Positions 9,368-36,177 of a DNA stretch of 64,000 nucleotides are shown piece by piece. The position numbers and the translations under genes are program-made. The first letter of the stretch is position 1; the number at the start of each line of letters is the position of its first letter. This stretch comes from Rhodospirillales bacterium (GTDB lineage Bacteria > Pseudomonadota > Alphaproteobacteria > Kiloniellales > JACOMY01), in contig OZ245764.1 of assembly GCA_965227565.1 (NCBI GenBank), forward strand, positions 5,623,834 to 5,687,833, written 5' to 3'. The notes beneath the pieces are model-generated. The model did not search any database. It worked only from the letters and a program-made list of their open reading frames with translations, and had not been told where the DNA came from.

Positions 9368-10125
9368 CGCGTCCCGGGCGGGTGCTTGGCCAGCCACCAG
9401 TAGGCCCGCAGCCGGTCCAGCCGCCGCGCCAGCTTGCGGCGTAGCCAGCCCAGCGGCGCGCGTCCGGGCGGCTTGGCGGGATGGATGTAGGACTGGCCCT
9501 CGTCGTCGTGGCTGACCCGGTAGGGCTCGATGGCGAGTGCGGCCACGCCGTGGCGCCAGTAGGCGTCCATGTGGTCGTCCACCGGCTCGAACCAGACCCT
9601 GGCGTCCTCGAGGTAACGCTCGGCGCCGGCGGGGGTAAGGAAGTAGGCCTGAGTGCCGCCCGGGCCCTTGTTGTGGCGCACCAGGCGGTAGCCCTCGCCC
9701 AGGTCGGCGATGAGCCGCGGCTGGCGGCCGCGCTGCAGGGCGCAGAGGCGGATCATGGGGTAGCGCCCGGCCAGCGAGCGCGCCAGGCCGACGGCCCTGG
9801 CGAAGCCCGCGTCGATCCTGACGTCGTCCTCCATGACGACGGCCGGCTTTCCGCTCTTCAGGATCCGCTGCCAGAGCAGGTAGTGGCTGGCGAAGCAGCC
9901 GAGCTCTGCGGGTACCAGCGGCAGGCCGCGCCGGGCGAGCGTCCTGGCCTCGTCATAGCGGCTGTGGGGCAGGTGCTCTCCCGCCCTGGCGTCGATCGCG
10001 GAAAAGCGCTCCGGCTGTAGGCCCTCGCGGGCGAGACCGGCAGAGACCTTGGTCCAGCGCTCCGGGGCGCGGTCCAGGTTGACGACGTAGATCGGCGGGT
10101 CTTGCCTTTTCGGGGGGGCGGGCAT
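9364..10125 (-). CDS. Glycosyltransferase family 25 (LPS/LOS biosynthesis type)
   Basis: YVVNLDRAPERW...FSAIDA...GCFASHYLLWQ...VMEDDV is the GT25 signature. Start taken at MPAPPKRQ (10125); the track ORF extends to 10185. Confidence 0.8.
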   Translation of the reverse strand: MPAPPKRQDPPIYVVNLDRAPERWTKVSAGLAREGLQPERFSAIDARAGEHLPHSRYDEARTLARRGLPLVPAELGCFASHYLLWQRILKSGKPAVVMEDDVRIDAGFARAVGLARSLAGRYPMIRLCALQRGRQPRLIADLGEGYRLVRHNKGPGGTQAYFLTPAGAERYLEDARVWFEPVDDHMDAYWRHGVAALAIEPYRVSHDDEGQSYIHPAKPPGRAPLGWLRRKLARRLDRLRAYWWLAKHPPGTR

Positions 10126-12733: not shown

Positions 12734-12888
12734 GGCCGTGCAGTGGCGCTTCTGCCGGTAGCCGGCGTGGTTGAGGCGGCCGATCGCCGACTGGGCAGCG
12801 GCATCGAAGGCGAGGAGAATGACCAGCAGAAAGCAAAGAAGCGCCGGGCCCGCAATCGCGAGCGACCGGCGCTTCCTCGGTCCTGATT

Positions 12889-12965
12889 TGGTCGGGGAGA
12901 GAGGATTCGAACCTCCGGCCCCTGCGTCCCGAACACAGTGCTCTACCAGGCTGAGCTACTCCCCG
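12889..12965 (-). tRNA. tRNA-Pro (anticodon CGG)
   Basis: The minus strand reads CGGGGAGTAGCTCAGCCTGGTAGAGCACTGTGTTCGGGACGCAGGGGCCGGAGGTTCGAATCCTCTCTCCCCGACCA. It forms a 7-bp acceptor stem, D arm, anticodon loop TTCGGGA, T arm GGAGG/CCTCT with TTCGAAT, and an encoded CCA. Length 77 nt. Confidence 0.92.
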
Positions 12966-13027
12966 GTGGGCCGCCGCCGTCCGCCCGCGAAGGGTGATCC
13001 GCATCGCTTGCGAACGGAGAGGCGCGG

Positions 13028-13056
13028 TGTATAGCCTCTGGCGTTTGCGCTGGCAA
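13028..13056 (-). promoter_or_regulatory. Possible sigma70-type promoter for tRNA-Pro
   Basis: The minus strand reads TTGCCA (13056-13051), a 17-nt spacer, then TATACA (13033-13028), about 55-60 nt upstream of the tRNA 5' end. It sits just after a GC hairpin plus TTTTTG that could terminate the EF-hand gene. Confidence 0.3.
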
Positions 13057-13139
13057 CAAAAAGGCGCCGCCGCCAACGCGCCGACAGGGCAGGCATTCGC
13101 CAAGAGCAGATGTGGAGGCGCCGGCCCCCGCTACCGGGC

Positions 13140-13451
13140 CTAGTCGCTCTGCTGCAGCTTCTTGATCTCGTCCACGGAGGTGGTGCCGTCGCCGTCCGGG
13201 TCGAGGAAGTTGAAGAGGTTGCCGAAGTGGAGGTCCCACTCGCCCTTGTCCACCACCCCGTCGCCGTTGGCATCGGCTGCCTGCCAGCACATGTCGGACA
13301 GCTTGGACCAGCCCTGCCGGGTCGTGGCCAGCCCGTCTGCCTTGTAGAAGTGCATGACGGCAGGGTCGCAGCCGTCGTCGGCCGCGGCCGGGGCTGCAAG
13401 GAAGCCCGTTCCGGCGGCCAGCAGGGCGGCGGGAAGAAGAAGGTGACGCAT
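13140..13451 (-). CDS. Secreted EF-hand calcium-binding protein (103 aa)
   Basis: Start at MRHLLLPAALLAAGTGFLAAPAAA (signal peptide), inside track ORF 13140-13637. Two canonical 12-residue loops: DANGDGVVDKGE and DPDGDGTTSVDE. Confidence 0.75.
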   Translation of the reverse strand: MRHLLLPAALLAAGTGFLAAPAAADDGCDPAVMHFYKADGLATTRQGWSKLSDMCWQAADANGDGVVDKGEWDLHFGNLFNFLDPDGDGTTSVDEIKKLQQSD

Positions 13452-13748
13452 GACGGCTGCTCCTCTGATCGATCGATTTCCGGCGAGCCTAAGCGGCGGC
13501 AAGAGAGGTGGCAAGACAGGGCTTCCTCGGTTCGGCGAAGAGCTTTGCAAAGCCGGTAAAAAGGCGAGAAAAACGCCAGCTTTGCTGCCTTTTTTGGCCT
13601 TGTGGCATTCCCTGGGCCTCGTTACAGTCTGCGCCAATCAGCGGGGAGCAATGAGAATTCTCCGGTGAGGAGGCTTGTTGAATCGCGTCGCCCATCGGTA
13701 AGGCGACAAGATCCGCATCACTTCGGGTGATTTCTGGGAGGAGAGAGC

Positions 13749-14804
13749 ATGACTTTTGCAAAACGTATCGCTGCAGCGGCGAGTGCTGTGGCCCTGACCG
13801 CGACGCTGGGCGTCGCCGTCGACGGGTCGGCAGATGCCCGTCCGGTCCGCTGGGACATGCAGAGCACCTATCCGGGCTCGCTGACCCAGCTCGGAACCCT
13901 GGGCAAGCGCATCGACCAGCAGATCGGCCTGGTGTCCGACGGCGAGATCCGGATCACCTTCCAGGAGCCCGGCGCCATCGTCCCGGCCCTGGAGGTCTTC
14001 GACGCGGTCGCCAGCGGCGCCGTCGATGCCGGCTGGTCGACGCCGGGCTACTGGGCCGGCAAGGTGCCGGCGCTGCAGCTCTTTGCCGCCGTGCCCTTCG
14101 GCCCGGCTGCTCCGGAGTACCTCGCCTGGTTCTACTTCGGCGGCGGGCGCCCGATCTTCGAAGAGATCTATGCCAAGCACGGCATCTACTCCGAGATGTG
14201 CGGCGTCATCGCGCCGGAGGCCTCCGGCTGGTTCCGCAAGGAGATCAAGTCGCCGGAGGATCTGAAGGGCCTGAAGATGCGCTTCTTCGGCCTGGGCGCC
14301 AAGGTGATGGAGAAGATGGGCGTCTCGACCCAGCTCCTTGCCGGCGGCGACATCTATCCGGCACTCGAGCTCGGCACCATCGATGCGACGGAATTCTCCA
14401 TGCCCGCCATCGACCTGAAGCTGGGCTTCTACCAGGTGGCCGGCCACTACTACTTCCCGGGCTGGCACCAGCAGTCGACCATGTTCGACCTGATGATGAA
14501 CAAGGCGGCCTATGATGAGCTGACCGACGTCCAGAAGGCGCAGATCGCCGCCGTGTGCGGCGACAGCGTGCGTTTCGGTCTGGTGGAGGGCGAGGCCATC
14601 CAGTTCGCAGCCCTGAAGGAGCTGCAGGAGAAGGGCGTCCAGATCCACAAGTGGCCGCCCGAGATGCTGGCTGCCTTCGAGAAGGCCTGGGACGAGGTCG
14701 CCCAGGAGCTGCAGAGCGATCCCGAGTTCAAGAAGGCCTGGGACAGCCTGCAGGCCTTCCGCGACAACTACGGGGTTTGGCGGGACCTCGGCTATCTGAA
14801 CTAG
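13749..14804 (+). CDS. TRAP transporter substrate-binding protein (COG4663-like)
   Basis: 351 aa with a signal peptide and DctP-superfamily similarity. Followed by Q and M subunits. Confidence 0.85.
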   Translation: MTFAKRIAAAASAVALTATLGVAVDGSADARPVRWDMQSTYPGSLTQLGTLGKRIDQQIGLVSDGEIRITFQEPGAIVPALEVFDAVASGAVDAGWSTPGYWAGKVPALQLFAAVPFGPAAPEYLAWFYFGGGRPIFEEIYAKHGIYSEMCGVIAPEASGWFRKEIKSPEDLKGLKMRFFGLGAKVMEKMGVSTQLLAGGDIYPALELGTIDATEFSMPAIDLKLGFYQVAGHYYFPGWHQQSTMFDLMMNKAAYDELTDVQKAQIAAVCGDSVRFGLVEGEAIQFAALKELQEKGVQIHKWPPEMLAAFEKAWDEVAQELQSDPEFKKAWDSLQAFRDNYGVWRDLGYLN

Positions 14805-24640: not shown

Positions 24641-24976
24641 ATGCCGACACCCCATAATCCATCCCTCGCGGTAAGGCGCGTGCTGCGCAAGCTTGGTGCG
24701 GACATCCGAGATGCCCGTCGGCGTCGACGCTTGCCAATGGCCGTCGTGGCTGAGCGCGCTTTCACATCCCGCTCGACCCTTCAGAAGGTCGAAGCCGGGA
24801 ACACCAATGTCAGCATCGGCATTTATGCCGGCGTCCTGCAGGCGCTCGGCCTGCTCGAGGGTCTGAGCCAGATTGCCGACATCGGTAACGACTCGGTTGG
24901 TCAAGCGCTGGCCAGCGCCGAACTGCCCAAGCACGCCCACCTCAAGCGGACACGCGGGTCGTCTCGCGATGACTGA
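24641..24976 (+). CDS. hipB: XRE-family HTH antitoxin (HipB-like)
   Basis: HTH RLPMAVVAERAFTSRSTLQKVEAG. Its stop overlaps the hipA ATG (ATGACTGA). Confidence 0.7.
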   Translation: MPTPHNPSLAVRRVLRKLGADIRDARRRRRLPMAVVAERAFTSRSTLQKVEAGNTNVSIGIYAGVLQALGLLEGLSQIADIGNDSVGQALASAELPKHAHLKRTRGSSRDD

Positions 24977-26216
24977 TTTCGAGGTGCATATAGACCTGGC
25001 CGGCCGCACGCACCCCATCGGACTGGCGAGGAGCAACCGCGTTCGAGGCAGGGAGGCCATCCTCTTCGAATACGATGGGGCGTGGCTCGCCGATCCGGAC
25101 CGCTTCTCACTCGAGCCTTCCCTTGCCCTGACCCGCGGTCTGTTCGCGCCCCCTGCCGGATCGTCGATTTTCGGGTCCATTGGAGATTCTGCGCCCGACA
25201 CATGGGGGCGCCGACTGATGCAGCGCGCCGAACGCCGACAAGCCGAACGCGAAGGCCGTGCCGTTCGCACGCTCGCGGAAAGCGACTACTTGCTTGGCGT
25301 CGCCGACGAGACCCGCCTGGGTGCCCTTCGATTTCGCTTGCCGGGCCAAGAGGCCTTCCAAGCACCGATGCGCGACGGCGTTCCCGCCCGGATCGAACTC
25401 GGGCGGCTTCTCGGGATCACTGAGCGGATTTTCCGCGACGAGGAAACGGACGAGGACCTTCAACTCATCTTCGCTCCCGGCTCCTCCCTTGGCGGTGCGC
25501 GGCCCAAAGCATCGGTCATCGATCAGCACGGATACCTCTCCATCGCGAAGTTCCCGAAGGAGACCGACGACTACAGCATGGAGACTTGGGAGGAGATTGC
25601 GCTACGCCTGGCTGCCCAGGCCGGCATCACCACCCCGCATCATGAACTGGTGGAGGTCGCCGGCAAGGCAGTGATGCTGTCGCGGCGCTTCGATCGCGCC
25701 GGCTCTATCCGCATTCCCTTCCTCTCTGCGATGGCGATGCTGGGCGCCAAGGACGGTGAACGCGGCAGCTATCCGGAGATCGTGGACGCCCTGGCGCAAC
25801 ATGGCGCGAAGGGGAAGACCGACGCACAAGCCCTCTACAGGCGCGTCGTGTTCAACGTGCTGATTTCCAATGTCGACGATCACCTGCGCAACCATGGTTT
25901 CCTTTGGTTCGGTAAGGCCGGATGGTCCCTTTCTCCTGCCTATGACCTCAATCCTGTGCCAACCGACCTCAAGGCGCGTGTGCTGACAACCAACATCGAC
26001 CTCGACGAGGGCACCTGCTCGATCGACCTGCTGGAGAGCGCGGCGGAACTCTTCGCACTCACCCTGGCGCAGGCTCGCGCGATCATCAGGGAGGTCGGGA
26101 CCACCACCGCGACTTGGCGCGATATGGCCAAGTCGGTCGGTGCCCGAACGGCCGAGATTACCCGAATGGCCAGTGCGTTCGAGCATAGCGATCTCACACG
26201 TGCGCTGGCCCTCTGA
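24969..26216 (+). CDS. hipA: HipA-family serine/threonine kinase toxin
   Basis: Start at MTDFEVHIDLAG, inside track ORF 24873-26216. Contains GSSLGGARPK (P-loop-like) and the catalytic NVDDHLRNHGF motif. Confidence 0.85.
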   Translation: MTDFEVHIDLAGRTHPIGLARSNRVRGREAILFEYDGAWLADPDRFSLEPSLALTRGLFAPPAGSSIFGSIGDSAPDTWGRRLMQRAERRQAEREGRAVRTLAESDYLLGVADETRLGALRFRLPGQEAFQAPMRDGVPARIELGRLLGITERIFRDEETDEDLQLIFAPGSSLGGARPKASVIDQHGYLSIAKFPKETDDYSMETWEEIALRLAAQAGITTPHHELVEVAGKAVMLSRRFDRAGSIRIPFLSAMAMLGAKDGERGSYPEIVDALAQHGAKGKTDAQALYRRVVFNVLISNVDDHLRNHGFLWFGKAGWSLSPAYDLNPVPTDLKARVLTTNIDLDEGTCSIDLLESAAELFALTLAQARAIIREVGTTTATWRDMAKSVGARTAEITRMASAFEHSDLTRALAL

Positions 26217-26309: not shown

Positions 26310-27857
26310 TCACTCCCACTCGATCGTCCCCGGCGGCTTCGAGGTCACGTCGTAGACCACCCGGTTGACCCCGCGCACCTCGTTCACGATGCGCGTCGCC
26401 ACCTCGGCGATGAAGCTGTGGTCGAAGGGGTAGCTTTCGGCCGTCATGCCGTCGGCCGAGGTGACCGCGCGCAGCGCCAGCACGTGGTCGTAGGTGCGCT
26501 GGTCGCCCATGACGCCGACCGTGCGCACCGGCAGCAGGACCGCGAAGGCCTGCCAGATGGCATCGTAGAGGCCGGCGGTGCGCAGGGCCTCGATGTAGAT
26601 GGCATCGGCCTTGCGCAGGATCCCGGCCTTCTCGGCGTCGACCGGGCCCGGAATGCGGATCGCCAGGCCCGGGCCGGGGAAGGGGTGGCGGCCGATCAGG
26701 GCCTCGGGCAGGCCGAGCTCGCGGCCGAGCGCGCGGACCTCGTCCTTGAAGAGCTCGCGCAAGGGCTCGACCAGCGCCATCTTCATGCGCTCGGGCAGGC
26801 CGCCGACGTTGTGGTGGGTCTTGATGGTGACCGACGGGCCGCCGCGTGGCGAGACGCTCTCGATCACGTCGGGATAGAGGGTGCCCTGGGCCAGGAAGTC
26901 GGCGCCGCCGATCTTCTTCGCCTCCTCCTCGAAGACCTCGACGAAGCTGCGGCCGATGATGCGGCGCTTCTCCTCCGGGTCGGCCACGCCCGCTAGCCGC
27001 CCGAGGAAGAGCGCGGAGGCGTCGCGGTCGACCAGCGGGATGTTGTAGTGGTCGCGGAAGAGGGCGACCACCTCGGTCGCCTCGTTCAGCCGCATCAGGC
27101 CGTGGTCGACCAGGATGCAGGTGAGCTGGTCGCCGATCGCCTCGTGGATCAGCACCGCGGCGACCGAGGAATCGACCCCGCCGGAGAGGCCGCAGATCAC
27201 TCGCTTGCTCCCGACCTGCGCGCGGATCGCCTCGACGGCGGACTGGCGGAAGGCGGCCATGGTCCAGTCGCCCGCACAGCCGCAGATCTCGTGCGCGAAG
27301 CGGGCGATCAGCTTGGCGCCGTCGGGGGTGTGGATCACCTCGGGATGGAACTGCACGCCGAAGAAGCGGCGGCTCTCGTCGGCGGTGATCGCGAAGGGCG
27401 CGCCCTCGGAGCGGCCGATCGAGGTGAAGCCGGGCGGCAGGGCGACCACCCGGTCGCCGTGGCTCATCCAGACCTGGTGGCGCTCGCCCGGCTGCCAGAC
27501 CCCGGCGGTCAGCGCCGTGCGGTCGGTCACCTCGACGAAGGCCTTGCCGAACTCCTGGTGGTCGCCGGCCTCCACCACGCCGCCGAGCTGGTGCACCATG
27601 AGCTGCTGGCCGTAGCAGATGCCGAGGATCGGCAGGCCCTGCTCGAAGAGGGCGGCGGGCGCCTGCGGGCTGTCGGCGGCAATCGCCGAGGCTGGGCCGC
27701 CGGAGAGGATGATGCCCCTGGGCTGCACCGCCTCGATGCGGTCCATCCCGGCATTGAAGGGCAGGATCTCGCTGTAGACGCCGGCCTCGCGCAGGCGTCG
27801 CGCGATGAGCTGGGTCACCTGGGAGCCGAAGTCCAGGACCAGAATCGTATCCGTCAT
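26310..27857 (-). CDS. guaA: GMP synthase (glutamine-hydrolysing)
   Basis: 515 aa. GATase domain (GICYGQQ), PP-loop SGGVDSSV, and C-terminal PPGTIEWE. Confidence 0.95.
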
Positions 27858-28095
27858 GATCAGGAAAGAGCATAAGGACCGAGTCCTGTCCAGACCAGGC
27901 GCCGGCGCCCAGCCCGCAAGCCTGCCGTGCGCCCTCGACCCCGCCCGCAGGCTTGACGGGAGGGCCTTGCGACGGCGAGGTTACCGCCGTTTGGGCCGGT
28001 CGATCCCCCCGATTCGCGGTGCCGGTTTTCCGCGTCTCTTGTGGCCTTGCGTGACCGCTGCGTCTGCGGGCCCTCCCCGGCACCGCAAGCCCCCT

Positions 28096-29010
28096 TCAGT
28101 CGGCAGACAGCAGTTCGGAGGCTTCGCTCTCGATGGCCGTCAGGCCCTGGCGGCGGCCCAGGTCGGCGGCCGCCTGGAGCCACGACCGGCTCGCGTCCGT
28201 GAGCTCACCGTCGATCATGCCGGCCCGCCCGGCGCGCAGGTAGAGATCGGCGGCGACCGCCGGCTGGCCGCGGGCAAGGGCGGCAGTGCCGGCGGCACCC
28301 AGTGCGCGCGCAAGCCCGTTCAGGTCCTGGTCCATGCGGCGCAGCCTGGCGATCTCCAGCAGGCTGGCCTCCGCGCCGGCGACGTCGCCCGAAAGCCAGG
28401 CCGCATGCGCGCGCAGCTCCAGCAAGTCGGCCGAGTCGTCGGGGACACCGTCGGCAGCCATCCGGGCGATCGCCTGGTCCAGCAACGCCCTGTCGCGCGC
28501 GTCGGCGGCGATCAGGCCCAGAAGCAGGGCGGCCCTCGCCTGCAGGGCGGGATCGGCGCCGGCGGGTGCCAGGGCAATGTCCTGGACCAGCCGGCGGGCG
28601 ATCTGGTTCTGCCCCATGAGGTAGTGGCCCCAGCCGGCCAGGACGATCCAGCGCGGGCCCGCGGCCGCCCCGCGCCGCTCGAGCTCGGCGCCGGTCCGCT
28701 CCGCCAACAGGACGGCCTCTGCGCCGTCGCCGAGCCGCAGGGCCGTCAGCCCCCGCTCGAAGGCGGCGTCGGATATGGCGTCGATGGCGTCGGCACGCTT
28801 GGCCTGTTCGAGGGCGCGGTCATAGAGCAGTGCTGCTTGCGAATAGCGGCCATCGGCGAAGGCGATGCGGGCGAGACGCAGGTCGTTCCGGTACTCCCGG
28901 TCGATGCCGTGCGGCTTCTCGGCGACCGGTTCGCTACCGCCGCAGCCGGCCAGGCCGAGGGAGAGGAGGAGCGAGACCAGCAAGGCGGCCGCCGGGAGAG
29001 CTCCTGTCAT
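28096..29010 (-). CDS. TPR-like helical-repeat lipoprotein
   Basis: Lipobox LGLAGCGG. Ala/Leu-rich helical repeats. Its ATG overlaps the MlaD-like stop (ATGA 29007-29010). Confidence 0.6.
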   Translation of the reverse strand: MTGALPAAALLVSLLLSLGLAGCGGSEPVAEKPHGIDREYRNDLRLARIAFADGRYSQAALLYDRALEQAKRADAIDAISDAAFERGLTALRLGDGAEAVLLAERTGAELERRGAAAGPRWIVLAGWGHYLMGQNQIARRLVQDIALAPAGADPALQARAALLLGLIAADARDRALLDQAIARMAADGVPDDSADLLELRAHAAWLSGDVAGAEASLLEIARLRRMDQDLNGLARALGAAGTAALARGQPAVAADLYLRAGRAGMIDGELTDASRSWLQAAADLGRRQGLTAIESEASELLSAD

Positions 29011-30020
29011 GGACGGATCTCCTGCACGGACAGCGGACCCTGGGACGGCGGCGGAGGGGTCCCGCCGACAAGCCAGTTCCGCTGCATCGTCAGCAGGAGG
29101 TTCTCCAGCTCCTGCAGGGTCACCTGAAGCTGTGCGATCAGAAGCTGCACGTCGCCGGAGGCCCGTCCGGCATTGCGCGAGAGTTTGACGATACCGGGAA
29201 CCGCCTTGCGGACCTCGTCGATCGTGCCGCGGGTGCTGCGGACGATGGCAGGTACTCCCGACTGCGTGTTGCTAAGGGCTCTGGCCAGCACACCGAACTC
29301 GCCGCTCGCGGCGGCGAGCGTGTCGACCAGGATACCGACGCCAGCCAGTTGCTGGCGCAGGTCTTCCAGGGTCAGCAGCATCTCCTGGACCAGGCTGTCG
29401 TCGGTCAGAAGCCGGCCGGCCGCTCCCTTCCCCTGCAGGGTTGCGGTCGTTATCGCCGCGACGTCGCTGAGCGTCGTCTGCAGGTGTCCGTCGGCGCTGT
29501 TGAGGGACTCGATGAGGTCCGCCAGGCCGGTGATGGCACGGTGAGTCTCCTCGACCACCGGGATGACCCGATCGCGAACCTCACTCAGGAGATCGCTGAC
29601 GCTTTCCGACGAGACGGTCTTGGGATCGACGGCGAGGACGGCGAAGTCCCAGTCGAGCGGCAGGCCCTTTCCGCGGGTGATCTCCAGATAGGCCGCGCCG
29701 GCGATACCGAACTGTCGCTGGATCAGCACCCGGGAATCGCGCCGGATGAAGGGGGTCCAGCGTTCGTCGATCCTGACCAGGGCATAGAAGCTCTCGTCGG
29801 GCCTGATGACGATCTCGTCCACCGTGCCCGCCGGCGTTCCCAGCACGTCCACGGTGGCACCGGTGGCAAGCCCGGCCACCCCGCTTTCCGGGAGCAAGAC
29901 GCGCAAGCTGCGCTGGCTGCGCAGCAGCTCGTCCAGGACCCGGCTCTCCAGCAGCGCGCCCAGGACGATGACCAGCGCGACGACGACGAAGACCGCAACG
30001 CGGCGGCGCGGCCGGTGCAT
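29007..30020 (-). CDS. MlaD/MCE family protein
   Basis: N-terminal TM VAVFVVVALVIVLGALL, then an MCE beta-barrel region (GLATGATVDVLGTPAGTVDEI) and a long helical C-terminus. An alternative TTG at 30041 would overlap the upstream stop. Confidence 0.8.
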   Translation of the reverse strand: MHRPRRRVAVFVVVALVIVLGALLESRVLDELLRSQRSLRVLLPESGVAGLATGATVDVLGTPAGTVDEIVIRPDESFYALVRIDERWTPFIRRDSRVLIQRQFGIAGAAYLEITRGKGLPLDWDFAVLAVDPKTVSSESVSDLLSEVRDRVIPVVEETHRAITGLADLIESLNSADGHLQTTLSDVAAITTATLQGKGAAGRLLTDDSLVQEMLLTLEDLRQQLAGVGILVDTLAAASGEFGVLARALSNTQSGVPAIVRSTRGTIDEVRKAVPGIVKLSRNAGRASGDVQLLIAQLQVTLQELENLLLTMQRNWLVGGTPPPPSQGPLSVQEIRP

Positions 30021-30037
30021 TTCCCGTGTGAGATAGG

Positions 30038-30760
30038 TCAAGGCCTGCCCTCCACCGCGCGCAGAGCCAGACCCCGGAAGCGGAGCCGACGGTCGACCGG
30101 TAGGGTCCGGAATTCCGCGGCGGTCGTGCCGCGAACGCAAGCCAGGGCGGCCGCCCCGCGATCGGTCGCCTGCCGGCAGAGGTTCAATATGGGGCCCGGA
30201 GGCAGGGCCGTTGACGCAACGGCGGCGGCCTCGAGCAGCACCAGGCCCGGCTCGCCCAGGAATGCGCGGGCCAGAGCCGCCCGCGCGAGGTCTGACGGCG
30301 AGGTATCCTCGATCTCGCCGACCGGCAGGCCCGGCAGGTCGAGCAGACGGCAGAGGTCGTCGGCCTCCGCCAGGATGGCCTCCCGGGACCGGCGGGTGTG
30401 GTAGCGCTCCACCAGCGCCAGGTTCTCCGGGACCGTCAGGGTCTCGATCCAGCTACCCGCGCCAAAGGCGTGGCCGATGCTGCCGCGGCGCGCGCGCAGG
30501 AACGATGTGTCGCGGCCGCGGAAGTCGGACCAGCGTCGGTTCAGGACGATCAGATCCCCGGCACGCGGCCTGTCGATGCCGACGAGCGCATCGAGAAGCC
30601 AGCGCTCGTAGCCCGGCTCGTCGATCTCGGCCAGCGCCAGCTCCCCGGGGAAGAGATCGAAGCTGCAGGCGATCACGGGATCCTCCGGGCCCCCGCCGCA
30701 AAGGCGCAGACCGGACGCATGGACGACGGCATCGACAGCTGCAGGGGTGGGCGCGCGCAT
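30038..30760 (-). CDS. ABC-ATPase (MlaF-like) homologue with all catalytic motifs degenerate
   Basis: 240 aa and alignable by eye to MlaF. The Walker A position reads IDEPGYER, the Q-loop region HAFGAGSW, the signature TSPSDL, the Walker B LVLLEAAA, and the H-loop ACVRGT. Confidence 0.65.
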   Translation of the reverse strand: MRAPTPAAVDAVVHASGLRLCGGGPEDPVIACSFDLFPGELALAEIDEPGYERWLLDALVGIDRPRAGDLIVLNRRWSDFRGRDTSFLRARRGSIGHAFGAGSWIETLTVPENLALVERYHTRRSREAILAEADDLCRLLDLPGLPVGEIEDTSPSDLARAALARAFLGEPGLVLLEAAAVASTALPPGPILNLCRQATDRGAAALACVRGTTAAEFRTLPVDRRLRFRGLALRAVEGRP

Positions 30761-30770
30761 CGGGGCTGTC

Positions 30771-31613
30771 CTAGCGCCAGATGCTGAAGGCGAGCGCGAT
30801 CAACCCGGCGAAGACGACCGCCCGGAAGAACCCGCGTGCCAGCGCCCGGTCCGTCCGGTACCTGCGCATCGGCTCGATCGCCGTATCGCACATCGCAACC
30901 AGGGCAAACCAGGTCATGGTCGCAGCCTGAGCAAGCGCGATCGGCAGTTCCGCCCGTCCGATCTCGGAGAGGACCTGCAAGGGCAAGAGGCCGGAATCGA
31001 AAGTCATGACACCGGTCAGGGCCGCCATCACGAGACCGGCAGCCACAGCCAGGACGCCGAAGAGCAGGGTCAGAACGATTGCGGAGATTGTCCCGGCAAG
31101 GACGCCCGGCAGGATGACGAGAGCCAAAGGATCGATTCCTACGGCGATCAGCGCGCGCATCTGACCGCCTCTTCGGAGCGACACCAGCGCCCCCGACAAC
31201 AGGAAACCGCCGCGCCCCAGTAGAACGAGCATCACCACGATCGGGGCGAACAGGGTCGTGAGGAGATTGCCCAGGGCGCGCCTGATGAAGTCCAGATCGC
31301 CGAACTCGCGCAGCCAGTAGGAGCCCTGCCCGACGATCACGATTCCCGATAGAACCGCGATCACCGTGACGATGGGCAGGGCCTGCACGCCGATGCGATC
31401 GAGCGCCAGCACGAACTGGTCGCGCACGGGCGCACGCCAGGTGCCCGGCGAAACCGCCAGCCAGGCCAGGCTGACCGAGAGCGACAGGCTGTCGAGCAGC
31501 CAGAGCAGCGGCGGACGGCCGAGACTCTGTCTCGCCCGGCCCGCAGTCCTTGCGCGCCGGCCGCCCGGCCCTCCATCACGCGCCCGGTCGGACATGGTGG
31601 CTTTCGTCCGCAT
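30771..31613 (-). CDS. MlaE-like ABC permease
   Basis: Polytopic. VQALPIVTVIAVLSGIVIVGQG and LLGRGGFLLSGALVSLR..MRALIAVGIDP parallel MlaE conserved blocks. Alternative start at 31595. Confidence 0.75.
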   Translation of the reverse strand: MRTKATMSDRARDGGPGGRRARTAGRARQSLGRPPLLWLLDSLSLSVSLAWLAVSPGTWRAPVRDQFVLALDRIGVQALPIVTVIAVLSGIVIVGQGSYWLREFGDLDFIRRALGNLLTTLFAPIVVMLVLLGRGGFLLSGALVSLRRGGQMRALIAVGIDPLALVILPGVLAGTISAIVLTLLFGVLAVAAGLVMAALTGVMTFDSGLLPLQVLSEIGRAELPIALAQAATMTWFALVAMCDTAIEPMRRYRTDRALARGFFRAVVFAGLIALAFSIWR

Positions 31614-31616
31614 CCG

Positions 31617-34058
31617 TCAGGCCGCGCGACCGACGACGAGGGAGACGTCGATGCATTCGCCGGCTTCGAGGTGATACCGCCCGCGGCGTCGGAAGACGAA
31701 ATGGTCGGAGAGCAGCTCGACGGTTCGGCCGCCCACCTGGATGGCTCCACCCGGTGCGGAGGCGGCCAGGCGTTCGGCCAGCCGGGCGGGTCCTCCCCAG
31801 AGGTTGATCATCTCGGGCTCGCTCAGCGACCAGCCAAGGGCCGTGCCGGTATCGATGCCGATGGCAAAGGCCGGTTCCATGGCGTGCGAGCGGAAGAGGG
31901 CACGGAGGTCGTACTGGATCTCGAGGCCGGCATCCAGGAGCCTGTCCGCGCCATCCCGCTCGCTCTCGGCCAGGCCTGACGCCAGCTGAAACCGGCTGCC
32001 GAGCAGCTTGACGTAGGGGATGTCGTGACGCTCGGCCACCTCCCTGACGATCTCGACGATCCGGTCGAACAGGGGGCGATCCCCATCGACTGCCTGGCCC
32101 AGGCCGTGGTCGTCGCGGCAGGTCAGTTCCAGAACCGAAAGCCCGGGAACCGCCGTGGGAGGCCCAGCGCGTTCGCGCCCAGCGAACCAGCCGGTTCTCG
32201 CCGGTTCGCGCAGGCTCACCACTGAGGGGTCGCCGACAAGCAGGGCGGCGGCAGGCGCCGTCTCCTTCCGGCCTGTGCCCGGCCGCGCCGCGCGCAGGTC
32301 CGAATCGAACTCCTCGACTTCGAGCGCCAGCAGTGCAACGGCGGCCGCATAGTGCGCTGCGAGCCTTGCTCCCACCTCCGAGCGGCGCATCAGGTCCGGC
32401 GTTTCCAGGACCACCAGCCCGAAACCCTTGCCGCGCGCCAGGATCGGCGCAACGAAGACCGGGATATCGGGCGAAGTCTCTTCACGCGAACGAGGCGATG
32501 CCACGAAGGGCCGTTCCGCCTCGGCTCCTCTCAGGGTGACGTCCTCGTCGCGGCTCATGGCATCGAACACCTCTGGCGCCTGCCAGCGTTCGACAGGCAT
32601 CAGCAGGGTCTGCCCCCTGTTCTCGGCATCGTAGCAGGCAAGACAGCGGAGCTCGTCGCCGTAACGTCGCCAGATGCTGGCGCTGCGGGCATCCGTGTTC
32701 CGCGCAAGCGACCCGACCAGTTGCGCCAGGGCGTGGCCGGGATCGCCCTGCGCCTCGCGCACGGTGCCCCGGATACCCTCGAAGATGCCCTCCAGTCCCG
32801 CCAGCCACCTCCGCTGTTCCTGGATCACCCGCGCTCGCCGATCGATCCGCCGGTTCTGAAGGAACAGCCAGACCGCCAGGCAGAGCGCGCAAAAGATCAG
32901 CACCCCTGAGATGATCATGCCGATCAGGCTGTTCCGCACGAGAAAGTAGGTAAAATCACTCTCTGGTGCTATCAGCACCATCCATAGATTTGCTTCTGTT
33001 GTTTCTTGCAAAGAAGAAACCAGGATGAAGACTTTCTTGCCGTCAACCTGGGTGAATTCCATCCGGTCCCCATGGACCCGGATGATGTCATAGGCGCGGA
33101 CCAGCGCCGGATCGCCCAGGTCTTCGACGGTGGGCAAGCGCTCTGCGCGGAGGAGGGGGGCGGAGCTGTCGAGAAGCGAGGGGGCCGCGACGACATCGCC
33201 GTTCCCGGCCAGGAGAACGGCATGCCCGTTCTCGACGACGTCCAGATCCATCAGATAGCGGCTGAGTGTGTCGACCCTGACATCGGCGCCGACCACGGCT
33301 TCGACCCTTCCATCGGGACTTCGGACCGCCAGTGACACCGTCGCACCCGGTGCGCCGGATGTGAAGAACTGGTAGACATCGGTCCAAGAGACCTTGTCTC
33401 CGCCCCGCTCTGCCAGCTTGTACCAGGGGCGGCTGCGTGGGTCGAAGGTGTCATCGGGAAGGTCCAGGCGCTCGATCAGGGTACCGTCCAAACTGCGCTT
33501 AGTCAGCGTAACGTGGCGCCCGCCTGCTGCGAAGACGATCCGCTTCGTATCGAAGCCGCCCTCGTCGTTCTTCCTGATCATCAGGAAATCGCCGTTGCTG
33601 CGGGCCACGTAAACGGCGGAGATCAGCCCGAGCTTCCTCAGGGCGGAAAGAGCCAGACCTTCGAAGCCGATGTTCCCGGGATTGTTGCTCACGATCTCCG
33701 CACCGAACTCGACGACCCTCTTGGCCTGTGAGAGCGCCCCGTCTGTCTGGGCGCGGATGCGGTTCTCCAGCACGCCGAGAAAGTTCTCCGCGAGGACGAG
33801 CACATCTTTCTTGTTACTCTGATAGTTCAAGAACGTCACCACGAACATTCCGCTAAAAATCAAGATGACCACCATAATAGGCAGCGTCTGGGCGAACAGG
33901 CGCCGCCGCTTGTGCCTTCTGAATTTTGCAGGATCAGTCGCTATGTCTATGATGCTGTGACTGGCCATCGTCGCGCCTACCCGAGCTTTGGTCGCCTCCC
34001 AAGGAAGGTCACGGCAGTATCGCCGAACCTCATGCTGTTTCACAGTAGGCATATCCAT
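31617..34058 (-). CDS. Membrane sensor: dCache-like periplasmic domain, TM, GAF-like domain, degenerate class III cyclase-homology domain
   Basis: 813-aa ORF (alternative start at 33968). Two TM segments bracket a Cache-like region. The C-terminus aligns by eye to nucleotidyl cyclases but lacks both metal-binding Asp and the transition-state Asn. Confidence 0.7.
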   Translation of the reverse strand: MDMPTVKQHEVRRYCRDLPWEATKARVGATMASHSIIDIATDPAKFRRHKRRRLFAQTLPIMVVILIFSGMFVVTFLNYQSNKKDVLVLAENFLGVLENRIRAQTDGALSQAKRVVEFGAEIVSNNPGNIGFEGLALSALRKLGLISAVYVARSNGDFLMIRKNDEGGFDTKRIVFAAGGRHVTLTKRSLDGTLIERLDLPDDTFDPRSRPWYKLAERGGDKVSWTDVYQFFTSGAPGATVSLAVRSPDGRVEAVVGADVRVDTLSRYLMDLDVVENGHAVLLAGNGDVVAAPSLLDSSAPLLRAERLPTVEDLGDPALVRAYDIIRVHGDRMEFTQVDGKKVFILVSSLQETTEANLWMVLIAPESDFTYFLVRNSLIGMIISGVLIFCALCLAVWLFLQNRRIDRRARVIQEQRRWLAGLEGIFEGIRGTVREAQGDPGHALAQLVGSLARNTDARSASIWRRYGDELRCLACYDAENRGQTLLMPVERWQAPEVFDAMSRDEDVTLRGAEAERPFVASPRSREETSPDIPVFVAPILARGKGFGLVVLETPDLMRRSEVGARLAAHYAAAVALLALEVEEFDSDLRAARPGTGRKETAPAAALLVGDPSVVSLREPARTGWFAGRERAGPPTAVPGLSVLELTCRDDHGLGQAVDGDRPLFDRIVEIVREVAERHDIPYVKLLGSRFQLASGLAESERDGADRLLDAGLEIQYDLRALFRSHAMEPAFAIGIDTGTALGWSLSEPEMINLWGGPARLAERLAASAPGGAIQVGGRTVELLSDHFVFRRRGRYHLEAGECIDVSLVVGRAA

Positions 34059-34226
34059 CCAACGGGCCGGCGCCCAAGAGGCGTGTCACTTCGTCCTCGC
34101 CCGGTCGCGGTATCGTTGTGGGAAAAGACGGCAAGCGACCTGCGCCCCCAAACGGCGGCCTCTTCACGGCAGCGGGTGGGGAGGTCAGTGCGGATGCCGC
34201 CGGTTGGGATCCGCCGGGAAGAGGAG

Positions 34227-35174
34227 ATGCGAGCCCCCGTGAGCGCCGTCGTCATCACCGAGTTCATCGAGGAGGGCGCGCTGGAGGCCTTCCCGCCCGG
34301 CATCGACCTGCTCTACGACCCGGCGCTGGTGGACCAGCGCCATCGCCTGCTGGCCGCGCTCGGCGGGGCGGAGGCGCTGATCGTGCGGAACCGCACGCGG
34401 GTCGACGCGGAGCTCCTGGAGGCGGGCCCGCAGCTCAAGGTGGTCGGCCGGCTGGGCGTGGGGCTGGACAACATCGACCTTTCCGCCTGCCGCCAGCGCG
34501 GCATCGCCGTCTATCCGGCGGTCGGCGCCAACAGCGTCTCGGTGGCGGAATACGTGATCGCGGCGGCGCTCCTCCTGCTGCGCGGCGCCTTCTTCATGGC
34601 CCCCGAGGTGCTGGCCGGCGCCTGGCCCAGGCAGAAGGCCCGCGGGCTGGAGCTCGCCGGGCGCAGCCTGGGGCTGGTCGGCTACGGCAGCATCGCCCAG
34701 GTCGTGGCACAGCGCGCCAGGGCGCTGGGGATGAGCGTGCTGGCGAGCGATCCCTACCTACCGAGCGATCATCCGGCCTGGCTCGCGGCCGAACGGCTGT
34801 CGCTCCGGGACCTGCTGGCGCGCGCCGACGTTGTCAGCCTGCACGTGCCCCTGCAGGCCGAGACGCGGGGGCTGATCGACGCCGCGGCCATCGCCTCGAT
34901 GAAGCCCGGCGCGATCCTGATCAACACCGCGCGCGGCGGCGTGGTCGACGAGGCGGCCCTGGTGGCAGCACTGGAGACCGGTACCCTGGGAGGCGCGGCG
35001 CTGGACGTCTACGAGGAGGAGCCGCTCACCGCCGCGGCCGCCCGTCGCTTCCGCGGCGTCGAGCGCCTGCTGCTGACGCCGCACGTCGCCGGGCTGACGG
35101 AGGAGTCCGACCGCCGGGTCTCGCGCCTGACCGTCGAGAACGTGATCCGCGGGCTGGGTCTGCTGGATGGCTGA
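34227..35174 (+). CDS. D-isomer-specific 2-hydroxyacid dehydrogenase (PGDH-like)
   Basis: Start at MRAPVSAVV behind a GAGGAG RBS. NAD motif GLVGYGSIAQ and catalytic TARGGVVDE...TPHVAG. Confidence 0.85.
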   Translation: MRAPVSAVVITEFIEEGALEAFPPGIDLLYDPALVDQRHRLLAALGGAEALIVRNRTRVDAELLEAGPQLKVVGRLGVGLDNIDLSACRQRGIAVYPAVGANSVSVAEYVIAAALLLLRGAFFMAPEVLAGAWPRQKARGLELAGRSLGLVGYGSIAQVVAQRARALGMSVLASDPYLPSDHPAWLAAERLSLRDLLARADVVSLHVPLQAETRGLIDAAAIASMKPGAILINTARGGVVDEAALVAALETGTLGGAALDVYEEEPLTAAAARRFRGVERLLLTPHVAGLTEESDRRVSRLTVENVIRGLGLLDG

Positions 35175-36177
35175 GCTGGAACAGATCGAGCCCGGGGCTG
35201 CACGGGCCCTGGTCGTGCGGGCTCTGACAGCGGCCGGCTGCGCCGAGGCCAACGCCGCCTCGGTCGCCGAGGCCCTGGTGGCGGCCGAGATCGACGGGCA
35301 GGCCGGACACGGGCTCTCGCGGGTTGCGACCTACTGCGAGCAGCTCCGCGTCGGCAAGGTCGTGGGCGACGCCGTGCCTTCGCTCGCGAGTCCGGCGCCT
35401 GCCTTCCTTTCGGTCGACGCCGCCCAGGGCTTCGCTTTCCCGGCCTTCGATCTGGCGATCCCGGCGTTGGTCGAGACCGCGGCGGAAACCGGTGTCGCCG
35501 CCGCCGCGCTCCACCGCTCGCACCACTGCGGCCAGGCCGGCCGCCACGTCGAGCGCCTCGCCGAGGCCGGTGTCATGGCGCTGCTCTTCGCCAACACGCC
35601 CAGGGCCATGGCCCCCTGGGGCGGGCAGCAGCCGGTCTTCGGCACCAATCCCATCGCCTTTGCCGCACCGCAGGCAAACGCTCCGCCGCTGGTGGTCGAC
35701 CTCTCGCTCTCCAAGGTGGCGCGCGGCAAGGTGGTGGCAGCGGGAAAGCGCGGCGAGGAGATCCCCGAAGGCTGGGCGCTGGACAGCGCCGGGCGTCCGA
35801 CCACCGACCCCAGCGAGGCGCTCGCCGGCTCGATGATCCCGCTGGGCGATGCCAAGGGGGCGGCGCTCGCCTGGATGGTGGAGATCCTGGCGGTCTGCCT
35901 GACCGGCGCCTGCTTCAGCTTCGAGGCGACCTCCTTCCTGGGTCCCGAGGGCGGCCCGCCCTCCGTCGGCCAGCTCCTGATCGCCTTCGACGTCGAGCGC
36001 CTCTCCGGCGGCGCCTTCCGCCAGCACCTGGCCCGCCTCACCGACCAGGTGGCCCTGCAGGAGGGCGCACGCCTGCCGGGCAGCCGCCGCCTCGCCAGGC
36101 GCGCCGCCGTCGCGCGCGATGGCCTGGCGGTGCCGCGGGTGATCCTGGAGGAGGTGCGGGGGCTGGCGGGTCGGTAG
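35167..36177 (+). CDS. Ldh_2 family (malate/L-lactate/sulfolactate dehydrogenase-like) oxidoreductase
   Basis: 336 aa. Contains GQAGHGLSR, typical of the Ldh_2 family. 8-nt overlap with the upstream gene. Confidence 0.8.
   Translation: MAELEQIEPGAARALVVRALTAAGCAEANAASVAEALVAAEIDGQAGHGLSRVATYCEQLRVGKVVGDAVPSLASPAPAFLSVDAAQGFAFPAFDLAIPALVETAAETGVAAAALHRSHHCGQAGRHVERLAEAGVMALLFANTPRAMAPWGGQQPVFGTNPIAFAAPQANAPPLVVDLSLSKVARGKVVAAGKRGEEIPEGWALDSAGRPTTDPSEALAGSMIPLGDAKGAALAWMVEILAVCLTGACFSFEATSFLGPEGGPPSVGQLLIAFDVERLSGGAFRQHLARLTDQVALQEGARLPGSRRLARRAAVARDGLAVPRVILEEVRGLAGR

Follow-up and report, generated by a model that had tools for sequence, protein, structure and literature searches.

The window analysed here, by which we mean the whole 64-kb stretch of DNA, encodes a 240-aa protein with the layout of an ABC ATPase nucleotide-binding domain (NBD) in which the motifs for ATP binding and hydrolysis have been replaced. 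The gene for this protein, the pseudo-NBD, belongs to a conserved five-gene module in which a permease of the MlaE family and an MCE protein of the MlaD family are also encoded. We propose, with a probability of roughly 0.6, that the pseudo-NBD is maintained as an NBD scaffold without catalytic function, and that the MCE complex to which it belongs spans the envelope, works independently of ATP and is possibly gated by a receptor. The five genes of the module are as follows:

31617..34058, minus strand: membrane receptor of 813 aa with dCache, GAF and cyclase-homology domains (Pfam), its stop codon 3 nt from the start of the MlaE-like gene
30771..31613, minus strand: MlaE-family permease, a 280-aa ORF (Pfam MlaE 69.9 bits vs 22.5), with its stop codon placed 10 nt upstream of where the pseudo-NBD gene starts
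30038..30760, minus strand: pseudo-NBD of 240 aa, with a predicted ABC ATPase fold and no ATP-binding or hydrolysis motifs; ORF with an ATG start and a TGA stop
29007..30041, minus strand: MlaD-family MCE protein of about 337-344 aa with a long C-terminal helical region (Pfam MlaD 29.4 bits vs 25.1)
28096..29010, minus strand: predicted TPR-solenoid lipoprotein of 304 aa (lipobox, AF2 and Foldseek), its ATG overlapping the MlaD-like stop by 4 nt

Successive genes in the window are thus separated by gaps of 3 nt and 10 nt or joined by TTGA and ATGA overlaps. The plus-strand reading of 30038-30760 is full of stops. GC content in the pseudo-NBD gene is 0.85 at third codon positions (GC3) vs 0.56 at second positions (GC2), and the neighbouring genes are alike in this respect. 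The sequence was checked by comparing the window with contigs of three DNA runs. Positions 28000-34100 are reproduced with 0 differences by a Logan contig of independent origin (run X1, at a depth of 37), and pieces from run X2 are identical too, which rules out an assembly artefact. The reported 'joints' and most of the short pieces proved to be chance matches of 21-40 nt to unrelated GC-rich contigs. A search for RNA runs covering the locus returned none. A promoter and terminator scan returned one weak terminator-like site at 27887-27875, located 3' of the lipoprotein gene and just upstream of guaA.

Motif positions in the pseudo-NBD were read in three ways: from residue-level HMMER alignments to solved ABC NBDs, from a MAFFT alignment with canonical ABC ATPases, and from translated coordinates. 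The positions that correspond to the ATP site are:

30599..30622, minus strand: Walker A-equivalent loop DEPGYERW, residues 47-54 (D47...W54), in place of canonical GxxGxGKS (HMMER, MAFFT, translation)
30461..30463, minus strand: Q-loop position, with Gly100 in place of Gln (HMMER, MAFFT, translation)
30290..30304, minus strand: signature-equivalent stretch, which reads TSPSD (residues 153-157) where LSGGQ is canonical (HMMER, MAFFT, translation)
30227..30244, minus strand: Walker B-equivalent LVLLEA, residues 173-178, in place of hhhhDE (MAFFT, translation, family alignment)
30131..30133, minus strand: H-loop position, with Arg210 in place of His (HMMER, MAFFT, translation)

In the Walker A-equivalent loop the lysine is replaced by arginine, the Ser/Thr by tryptophan, and two of the three glycines are gone. 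In the Walker B equivalent the aspartate is replaced by glutamate (E177) and the catalytic glutamate by alanine (A178). The initial annotation had described an ABC-ATPase layout in which every catalytic motif is replaced, and HMMER, MAFFT, translation, the family profile, and AF2 with Foldseek all agree with that description. It had also stated that the protein contains no GxxGxGK[ST]; a pattern search for GxxxxGK[ST] across all 240 aa was indeed negative, and the profile alignment revealed no hidden P-loop or signature. The Pfam ABC_tran model (PF00005) scored only 16 bits on the pseudo-NBD, below its cut-off of 25, and among relatives it matched 102 of 140 at E<=0.01 (best 4.7e-11). With these residues replaced, the pseudo-NBD is very probably non-catalytic.

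Similarity to ABC NBDs is far greater than chance would give and marks the protein as their homologue. On its own, the pseudo-NBD sequence matched NBDs in the PDB at E 1e-7, and a profile built from its family matched FtsE at 1e-28 (102.9 bits), LolD at 1e-27 (100 bits), MacB at 2.5e-26 and MlaF at 2.6e-22 (82-90 bits). An AF2 model (pLDDT 92.7, pTM 0.90) predicts that the complete NBD fold, RecA-like core as well as helical subdomain, is kept. The top Foldseek matches of this model were whole NBDs of MacB, YbbA, BceA, FtsE, LolD and MlaF (E 1e-13 to 1e-11), with TM scores to NBDs of 0.72-0.80 over about 235 columns. The protein had been called MlaF-like, which holds for its position between MlaE-family and MlaD-family genes but not for its sequence, for which FtsE and LolD score slightly above MlaF; the MlaF model is also not among its 23 weak NCBIfam matches. 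On sequence and fold, descent from MlaF and descent from FtsE/LolD would be hard to tell apart, as their scores are too close to separate them.

The pseudo-NBD belongs to a discrete and widespread protein family; at E<=1e-10 it comprises 263 clusters, formed at 50% identity. Members score 215-301 bits on the family profile and real ABC ATPases at most 98 bits, leaving a gap between the two. A dedicated pseudo-ATPase in the MlaF slot, which had been reported as unusual, is confirmed; it is no lone oddity, however, since the discrete family around it is large. A scan of a genome collection with the single protein matched one genome, that of Rhodospirillaceae bacterium N.6G. Existing automatic annotation names genes of the family 'phospholipid/cholesterol/gamma-HCH transport system ATP-binding protein'. 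The family is apparently undescribed, as the literature that we searched contains neither a motif-less protein in the MlaF slot nor an MCE operon linked to a Cache-cyclase gene.

Loss of the ATP site is shared across this family. A Walker A motif (GxxxxGK[ST]) was found in 0 of 158 fetched family proteins and in 0 of 73 complete metagenomic copies, and LSGG in only two of the 158 fetched proteins. There is no conserved lysine at any position family-wide. The Q-loop column contains E, G, A or R with no preference for Gln, the H-loop column contains R, T, S or D, and position 178 is variable (R36, E24, S17, D14). Where canonical NBDs have the Walker B Asp an acidic residue is conserved, and 118 of 148 members have Glu there, as the pseudo-NBD does (E177). 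Conservation, measured as column entropy (family-wide mean 2.38 bits), is inverted: it is lowest in the motifs that contact ATP in canonical NBDs (Walker A 3.44 bits, Q 3.47, LSGG 3.24, catalytic E 3.39, D-loop 3.32, H-loop 2.95), and the scaffold and the face turned towards the membrane subunit are the most conserved (Q-loop/helical subdomain 1.96 bits; post-signature helix, DLxRAAxxRAFLGxP, 1.38 bits; Walker B strand 1.23 bits). Several residues that are invariant in the family do not occur in canonical NBDs, namely W77, W104, H120-H121, GLPGLP at 141-146, D57 and W207.

The five genes are inherited together, closely spaced or overlapping, and their order does not change: the gene for the dCache-GAF-cyclase-homology protein comes first, followed by those for the MlaE-like permease, the pseudo-NBD, the MlaD-like MCE protein and the TPR lipoprotein. 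Among metagenome loci with room to see the neighbour in question, MlaE lies directly upstream of the pseudo-NBD in 62 of 62, the MlaD-like gene downstream of the pseudo-NBD in 71 of 71 and the lipoprotein gene downstream of MlaD in 44 of 44. The receptor gene lies upstream of MlaE in 42 of 42 loci, a sample that was drawn with patterns of one subgroup (A5) and is phylogenetically non-independent. The receptor is not strictly obligatory, because two family contexts (L004 and L002) have no Cache-cyclase gene directly upstream. This translationally coupled upstream gene, missed in the initial annotation, is likewise taken in by the conserved module. Both an MlaE-family permease and a membrane-anchored MCE-domain protein are thus encoded together with the pseudo-NBD, and the sole NBD of the module is degenerate. 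No STAS domain was detected by Pfam in any protein of the operon, nor was one found in related loci.

Strongly conserved positions in the MlaE-like partner include a (Q)xRAL..(L/V)GIDP...LP(R) stretch, which putatively corresponds to the coupling-helix region of MlaE/YrbE sequences. The MlaD-like protein probably starts at the TTG at 30041, where start and pseudo-NBD stop share the letters TTGA, or else at the ATG at 30020. Its length, a match to TIGR00996 (Mce family) on residues 50-319 (E 1.8e-6) and faint 'Helical_needle' matches in its homologues are the basis for a putative needle. The lipobox of the TPR lipoprotein (LAGC-GG) is invariant in five homologues; the AF2 model of this protein (pLDDT 88.5) has 14 helices and its Foldseek matches are TPR domains of LGN, CTPR and KLC (E about 1e-5).

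In the receptor, dCache_1 scored 63.6 bits and Guanylate_cyc 40.6 bits (cut-off 21.9), with a weak match to GAF_3; read by eye, the dCache domain sits between two hydrophobic segments. The cyclase domain matches mycobacterial and mammalian cyclases in the PDB at E about 1e-10 to 2e-10 and has its homology domain in common with class III nucleotidyl cyclases, but it differs from them in its key residues: the second metal-binding Asp and the transition-state Asn are missing, and in most cases the Arg as well. In the copy from the window, the second metal Asp is replaced by Ser (G-S687) and the Asn by R759, and the Arg is kept. The canonical residues were found in few of 23 operon-linked copies (first Asp 8/23, second Asp 0/23, Asn 0/23, Arg 2/23). 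By comparison, a canonical CHASE2 cyclase on locus L002 retains all of the residues that the receptor has lost. The cyclase domain of the receptor therefore looks catalytically degenerate and may well be dead.

Synteny and conservation make it likely that the pseudo-NBD is a subunit of the MlaE/MlaD complex. Two copies would dock onto an MlaE-like dimer at its coupling helices, in the manner of MlaF within MlaFEDB. If, as we infer, the pseudo-NBDs can neither bind nor hydrolyse ATP, the complex would not be an ATP-driven pump. The pseudo-NBD would most likely act as a structural clamp or a conformational relay that holds or switches the permease/MCE tunnel, and an MlaD needle would lead lipid or other hydrophobic cargo, moving passively or by another energy source, to the outer membrane and the TPR lipoprotein. 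The receptor is predicted to have its Cache sensor in the periplasm, with the GAF domain and the seemingly dead cyclase domain at the membrane face on the cytoplasmic side. It would be the best candidate to replace ATP as the controlling input, by ligand gating, and may fill the regulatory role that MlaB/STAS has for MlaF. Gating of the complex by the Cache receptor is a more tentative proposal, their association again being suggested by synteny and conservation. More speculative still is the idea that the module represents a new class of envelope-spanning MCE machine whose ABC engine has turned into a nucleotide-free clamp, with a Cache receptor taking the place of ATP in opening or closing the MlaE/MlaD conduit. 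Two pseudoenzymes would then make up either a lipid bridge gated by a ligand or a device for signalling across the envelope.

One alternative is that the complex is still driven by ATP. A canonical ATPase of the MlaF/MceG type, encoded elsewhere in the genome, could dock on the MlaE-like permease either in alternation with the pseudo-NBD or as a heterodimer with it, leaving the pseudo-NBD a regulatory or placeholder role. In favour of this reading, several mce operons of mycobacteria share one ATPase, MceG. Genes for MlaA and MlaC lie 3 kb away on one related contig, suggesting that a canonical Mla pathway may coexist with the module. No canonical ABC ATPase (Walker A plus signature) lies within the 64-kb window, which argues against such a donor but covers only 1% of the 6.47-Mb source genome. 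However, the module has its own NBD-fold subunit, tightly spaced beside the permease in all 62 loci, and the membrane-facing region of that subunit is the most constrained. Together these observations argue that it is the pseudo-NBD, and not a foreign NBD, that occupies the coupling-helix sites. In an ABC heterodimer each composite ATP site is formed by the Walker A of one subunit and the signature of the other. A heterodimer with the pseudo-NBD would have both composite sites defective because the pseudo-NBD supplies neither element. We therefore consider an ATPase supplied in trans unlikely.

A second alternative, to which we give a similarly low weight, is that the complex is first of all a signalling machine. 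The MlaE/MlaD tunnel would sense the lipid or mechanical state of the envelope and pass a signal via the pseudo-NBD to the receptor, or the reverse, much as FtsEX might without ATP. Consistent with this, a receptor with sensor domains is coupled to the module in all 42 loci of the subgroup sample, and both enzymatic domains appear dead, as is typical of conformational or scaffolding proteins. The mechanotransmission NBDs FtsE and LolD are also the top profile and fold matches, but their lead over MlaF is small (103 and 100 vs 82-90 bits). Against a signalling function, there is no evident output domain, as the sole candidate, the cyclase domain, is without catalytic residues. The layout of MCE protein, needle and lipoprotein instead fits known lipid conduits such as Brucella Mpc (PMC12436622).

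A remodelled, non-canonical site in the pseudo-NBD might still bind a nucleotide or another small ligand and serve as a ligand-controlled switch. The family-specific invariant residues listed above and the acidic residue retained at the Walker B Asp position would be compatible with such a site. In the profile alignment, however, most of the invariant residues replace hydrophobic core or membrane-facing positions and do not line the former ATP pocket. Variability within the family is highest in the loops of that pocket (P-loop, signature, D-loop, H-loop), the opposite of what is expected for a ligand site, making this reading improbable.

That the gene is an old mlaF in decay, on its way to becoming a pseudogene, might be suggested by the loss of every catalytic motif and by a related long-read contig (L006) in which the MlaE-like neighbour is split over three frames, but this reading is refuted by the pairwise dN/dS of the pseudo-NBD gene (0.12-0.40 among four orthologues, similar to the 0.20-0.31 of its operon neighbours), by the equal length of the orthologues (240 codons in 4/4, without stops or frameshifts), by the 73 of 73 complete metagenomic copies that are uninterrupted, by strong conservation of non-catalytic positions across hundreds of clusters, and by the confident AF2 model. 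The initial annotation was thus right to see a frame that is maintained and not decaying.

ABC transporters are defined by ATP-driven dimerisation of their NBDs. A module that keeps the whole ABC/MCE architecture without the ATP-contacting residues is a natural experiment on what an NBD does apart from catalysis, be it scaffolding, relay or gating. It bears on how MCE systems are energised, on the direction of lipid flow, and on whether MlaE and MlaD can conduct without ATP. The pairing with a Cache-GAF receptor that has a seemingly dead cyclase domain points to an unstudied way of regulating how lipids move through the envelope of soil Alphaproteobacteria and related bacteria. At a practical level, the automatic label 'ATP-binding protein' misleads metabolic and transporter inventories.

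Among known systems, MlaF of the MlaFEDB complex (E. coli, A. baumannii and P. aeruginosa; PDB 6xbd, 7d06 and 7ch8) has the same predicted fold as the pseudo-NBD (Foldseek E 1e-11, TM 0.72-0.77) and occupies the same genomic slot, with an MlaE-family permease on one side and an MlaD-family MCE protein on the other. The two differ in that all of the ATP motifs of MlaF are missing from the pseudo-NBD, and in that MlaF has an MlaB/STAS partner and the pseudo-NBD has none. MlaF is also longer by about 30 residues. The profile alignment stops at MlaF residue 193-195 of 269, and the extension at the C-terminus of MlaF therefore has no counterpart in the pseudo-NBD.

The highest profile and fold scores against the pseudo-NBD family come from FtsE, LolD and MacB, which are the NBDs of mechanotransmission (type VII) ABC systems. 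These are active ATPases that work with membrane domains of the FtsX, LolC/E and MacB types, whereas the partner here is an MlaE-family permease. Non-consensus NBDs are also kept for regulation or structure in heterodimeric ABC transporters with degenerate sites, such as TAP1/2, CFTR (NBD1), PatAB and TM287/288. In those transporters one composite site is competent, and an intact Walker A lets the degenerate one go on binding ATP. The pseudo-NBD, by contrast, is presumably homodimeric and has lost the Walker A, Gln, signature, Glu and His, and so no competent site would remain.

A related arrangement is that of Mpc (mpcEFDA) of Brucella abortus, an Mla-Pqi chimeric trans-envelope lipid transport system (PMC12436622). 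Mpc is likewise alphaproteobacterial and shares the order permease, NBD, MCE protein, lipoprotein (PMC12436622). Its MCE protein has 331 aa and a needle-like helical extension, and the system has no MlaC (PMC12436622); the size of the MCE protein and the putative needle are alike in our module. MpcF is an ABC ATPase that its authors describe as homologous to MlaF (PMC12436622), whereas the NBD here is without ATP motifs. MpcE carries an N-terminal STAS domain and the Mpc lipoprotein is PqiC-like (PMC12436622); here, the MlaE-like permease has no STAS domain and the lipoprotein is predicted to be a TPR solenoid. Mpc also has no Cache-GAF-cyclase partner, unlike the present module. The PqiABC and LetAB systems of E. 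coli form MCE tunnels or needles without an ABC ATPase, and Pqi uses an outer-membrane lipoprotein (PMC12436622). PqiA and LetA are unrelated to MlaE and have no NBD-fold subunit beside them, whereas in the module described here the ABC architecture is kept but appears to be disabled.

The ORF at 30038-30760 on the minus strand begins with ATG and comprises 240 codons; read on the plus strand, the same interval contains many stops. GC content at codon positions 1, 2 and 3 is 0.77, 0.56 and 0.85, a pattern shared by the neighbouring genes. The product scored 16 bits against Pfam ABC_tran, below the cut-off of 25, and had 23 weak NCBIfam matches to assorted ABC ATPase models (best 28 bits versus cut-offs >200), the MlaF model being absent among them. 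A phmmer comparison with PDB sequences matched ABC nucleotide-binding domains (NBDs) with E-values down to 1e-7. The initial annotation had described an MlaF-like protein in which the ABC motifs are replaced. Each listed replacement was reproduced in the phmmer alignments, in a MAFFT alignment with canonical database ABC ATPases that gave the same motif contrast, and by translating the coordinates, which verified the substituted residues. All ABC ATPase motifs tested are missing from this protein, hereafter the pseudo-NBD.

Replaced motifs of the pseudo-NBD (all minus strand)
30599-30622: Walker A GxxGxGKS replaced by D47-EPGYER-W54
30461-30463: Q-loop Gln replaced by G100
30290-30304: signature LSGGQ replaced by T153-SPS-D157
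within 30227-30244: Walker B Asp replaced by E177
within 30227-30244: catalytic Glu replaced by A178
30131-30133: H-loop His replaced by R210

Assembly error at this locus is ruled out by a contig from an independent public sequencing run (X1; depth 37), which spans window positions 28000-34100 with 0 differences, and by pieces from a second run (X2) that are identical to the window sequence. A 38-nt stretch at 28926-28963 is also matched, apart from a 3-nt deletion at 28937, by a second X1 contig (21 kb, depth 12.8). GC-rich sequence of another organism in the sample, matching by chance, probably accounts for this, rather than a variant of the locus.

An AlphaFold2 model of the pseudo-NBD, predicted from an alignment of 140 relatives, had a mean pLDDT of 92.7 and a pTM of 0.90. 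Foldseek searches of this model against the PDB returned whole-domain matches (E 1e-13 to 1e-11, TM 0.72-0.80) to MacB, YbbA, BceA, FtsE, LolD, HrtA, ArtP, the Mce1 ATPase chain and MlaF. In a search of PDB sequences, the family profile matched FtsE (1.3e-28), LolD (9e-28), MacB (2.5e-26), Acinetobacter baumannii MlaF (1.2e-24) and Escherichia coli MlaF (2.6e-22), which leaves no doubt that the pseudo-NBD is homologous to ABC NBDs. The profile scores do not point to MlaF rather than to FtsE or LolD; the name "MlaF-like" is justified by gene position, between an MlaE-family and an MlaD-family gene. The profile alignment with MlaF stops near residue 193-195 of 269; the MlaF C-terminal extension therefore has no counterpart in the pseudo-NBD. 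Neither a match to the curated MlaF model nor the STAS partner was found, and no STAS/MlaB domain was detected in the proteins of the surrounding operon.

A phmmer search covering all 1.84 billion cluster representatives placed the pseudo-NBD in a large, discrete family, with 263 clusters at E<=1e-10. Family-profile scores leave a clean gap between members (215-301 bits) and genuine ABC ATPases (<=98 bits). GxxxxGK[ST] occurs in 0/158 fetched family proteins and LSGG in only 2/158. Where the source labels these proteins, it does so automatically, as [quoted passage not shown]; a database look-up of eight members found no curated names or accessions. Column entropies show that conservation in the family is inverted: the formerly ATP-contacting positions are the most variable, while the scaffold is strongly conserved.

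Mean column entropy in the pseudo-NBD family (overall mean 2.38 bits)
Q position: 3.47 bits
Walker A columns: 3.44 bits
Catalytic Glu position: 3.39 bits
D-loop: 3.32 bits
LSGG columns: 3.24 bits
H-loop: 2.95 bits
Q-loop and helical subdomain: 1.96 bits
Helix after the signature (DLxRAAxVRAFLGxP): 1.38 bits
Walker B strand: 1.23 bits

Near-invariant, family-specific residues include D57, W77, W104, H120-H121, GLPGLP at 141-146, E177 and W207, and no conserved Lys was found in any family column. In ABC transporters generally, the coupling helix of the membrane subunit sits in a groove made by the Q-loop and the helical subdomain. Together with the entropy pattern, this suggests that the pseudo-NBD is selected for folding and for docking to a permease, and not for nucleotide binding. 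A cryptic ligand site in the pseudo-NBD is an unlikely alternative. Two NBD-family proteins outside this family have likewise lost part of the motifs: in P0208, auto-annotated as MlaF, Walker A and the signature are gone, as are the Q-loop Gln and the H-loop His, and P0213 keeps Walker A and has lost the other three. Degenerate proteins in the MlaF slot may have more than one origin.

The pseudo-NBD is the third gene of a five-gene module.

The module and its flanking genes, in window coordinates
35167-36177, plus strand: Ldh_2-family malate/L-lactate dehydrogenase, upstream of the module
34058-31617, minus strand: 813-aa protein (dCache_1 63.6 bits, weak GAF, Guanylate_cyc 40.6 bits), followed by a 3-nt gap
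31613-30771, minus strand: MlaE-family permease (69.9 bits), followed by a 10-nt gap
30760-30038, minus strand: pseudo-NBD, joined to the next gene by a TTGA overlap or a 17-nt gap
30041 (TTG) or 30020 (ATG) to 29007, minus strand: MlaD-family MCE protein (Pfam MlaD 29.4 bits), followed by an ATGA overlap
29010-28096, minus strand: 304-aa lipoprotein, last gene of the module
26310-27857, minus strand: guaA (GMP synthase), immediately downstream of the module
24873-26216, plus strand: HipA-family kinase toxin gene (Pfam HipA_C 155.6 bits)

The HipA-family gene lies ~100 nt past the far end of guaA, and the two are convergent. The MlaD-like protein has a long, predicted helical C-terminus and matches TIGR00996 over residues 50-319. 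The MlaE-like proteins are well conserved, including a QxRAL..GIDP...LP(R) stretch that corresponds to the putative coupling-helix region of MlaE/YrbE sequences. The LAGC-GG lipobox of the lipoprotein does not vary among 5 homologues. The lipoprotein model (pLDDT 88.5) is a predicted 14-helix TPR-type solenoid with structural matches to the TPR domains of LGN, consensus-TPR and KLC, and the protein is neither PqiC-like nor MlaA-like.

The closest genome match, the Rhodospirillales alphaproteobacterium Rhodospirillaceae bacterium N.6G, shares the module order and the guaA gene that follows it, and six other public-assembly contexts have the same order; two further contexts have the four-gene core without the upstream cyclase gene. 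We searched 80 metagenome loci with the operon proteins using tblastn, counting only loci with enough flank. In this sample, which was drawn with patterns from one family subgroup and is phylogenetically non-independent, the MlaE-like gene lies directly upstream of the pseudo-NBD (62/62), the Cache-cyclase gene upstream of that (42/42), the MlaD-like gene downstream of the pseudo-NBD (71/71) and the lipoprotein gene downstream of the MlaD-like gene (44/44). Inherited together with the pseudo-NBD are the MlaE-like permease, the probably needle-type MCE protein and the TPR lipoprotein and, nearly always, the Cache-GAF-cyclase receptor. On the related long-read metagenome contig L006, the MlaE-like gene (9213-9994) is spread over three frames with apparent frameshifts near 9445 and 9765, which could be assembly homopolymer error or real decay; its pseudo-NBD and cyclase genes are intact. 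On contig L013, the module is followed after ~3 kb by oppositely oriented MlaC and MlaA genes (12796-14224), and a canonical Mla pathway is probably present in this organism as well.

The pseudo-NBD gene is maintained, as initially proposed. All 73 metagenome copies lying wholly inside a contig are uninterrupted, and Walker A is present in none of the 73. Two metagenomic orthologues were recovered in addition to that of N.6G, and all four, including the window copy, have exactly 240 codons and are free of stops and frameshifts. By the Nei-Gojobori method, the window copy gave dN/dS of 0.37-0.40 against the three others, which gave 0.12-0.26 when compared with one another; the four operon neighbours gave 0.20-0.31 and guaA 0.17. 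Gene decay is therefore excluded; the observation was confirmed as a whole and its interpretation, a dedicated pseudo-ATPase, is supported. This NBD-fold protein has no ATP site and is under purifying selection.

The C-terminal cyclase domain of the receptor is also degenerate, notably at 31995-32012 and 31764-31805 (minus strand), with G-S for G-D and Arg for Asn. In alignments with solved class III cyclases, its VKLLGS aligned with IKVSGD or IKTIGS and its WGGPARLAERL with WGDAVNVASRM. As a residue reference we used a canonical CHASE2 cyclase from contig L002 (KYEGDA, RIGINTG, GDAANLASRLE). This gene (6968-9106) has all canonical catalytic residues and lies three genes downstream of a four-gene core lacking the upstream Cache-cyclase, after an SH3_3 protein and an M48 peptidase. 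In the operon-linked domains the second metal-binding Asp is replaced by H, S, N or Q, the Asn by Arg and, in most, the Arg by Leu; across 23 copies the canonical second Asp and Asn are never kept (0/23 each), the Arg is kept in 2 (including the window copy) and the first Asp in 8. The established class III mechanism bars a competent active site in a homodimer of such domains, and judging from these residues the operon-linked domains could not form one. With the losses in the pseudo-NBD, the module therefore appears to contain two pseudoenzymes; the finding goes beyond one protein and takes in a conserved module of five genes, two of which encode apparently dead enzymes.

By analogy with MlaF in MlaFEDB, two pseudo-NBDs would dock on an MlaE-like dimer. 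The module would not be an ATP-driven pump, because its pseudo-NBDs are predicted to be unable to bind or hydrolyse ATP. Less probably, a canonical ATPase energises it in trans; no ORF in the 64-kb window pairs Walker A with an ABC signature. In the most economical reading, the pseudo-NBD would be a structural clamp or conformational relay, and the MlaE/MlaD needle and lipoprotein would together span the envelope as a conduit like that proposed for Brucella Mpc (PMC12436622). The receptor, its sensor predicted to be periplasmic and its GAF and dead cyclase domains to lie at the cytoplasmic face beside the pseudo-NBD, may provide the control that in Mla comes from ATP and MlaB. A primarily signalling role of the module is a less likely reading.

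No description of a family with such motif loss, or of a Cache-cyclase-linked MCE operon, was found in the literature searched; a phylogenomic survey omitted MlaF from its analysis because of annotation uncertainty. To specialists in envelope lipid transport or ABC transporters, selected, family-wide loss of a whole ATP site would come as a surprise, and the module offers a way into the question of what energises and regulates MCE systems. Its architecture resembles that of Mla/Mpc-type MCE systems, but it lacks the tested features that concern catalysis. In the degenerate sites of heterodimeric ABC transporters, by contrast, Walker A is retained, ATP is still bound and one competent site remains; PqiAB and LetAB are different again, having no ABC architecture at all.
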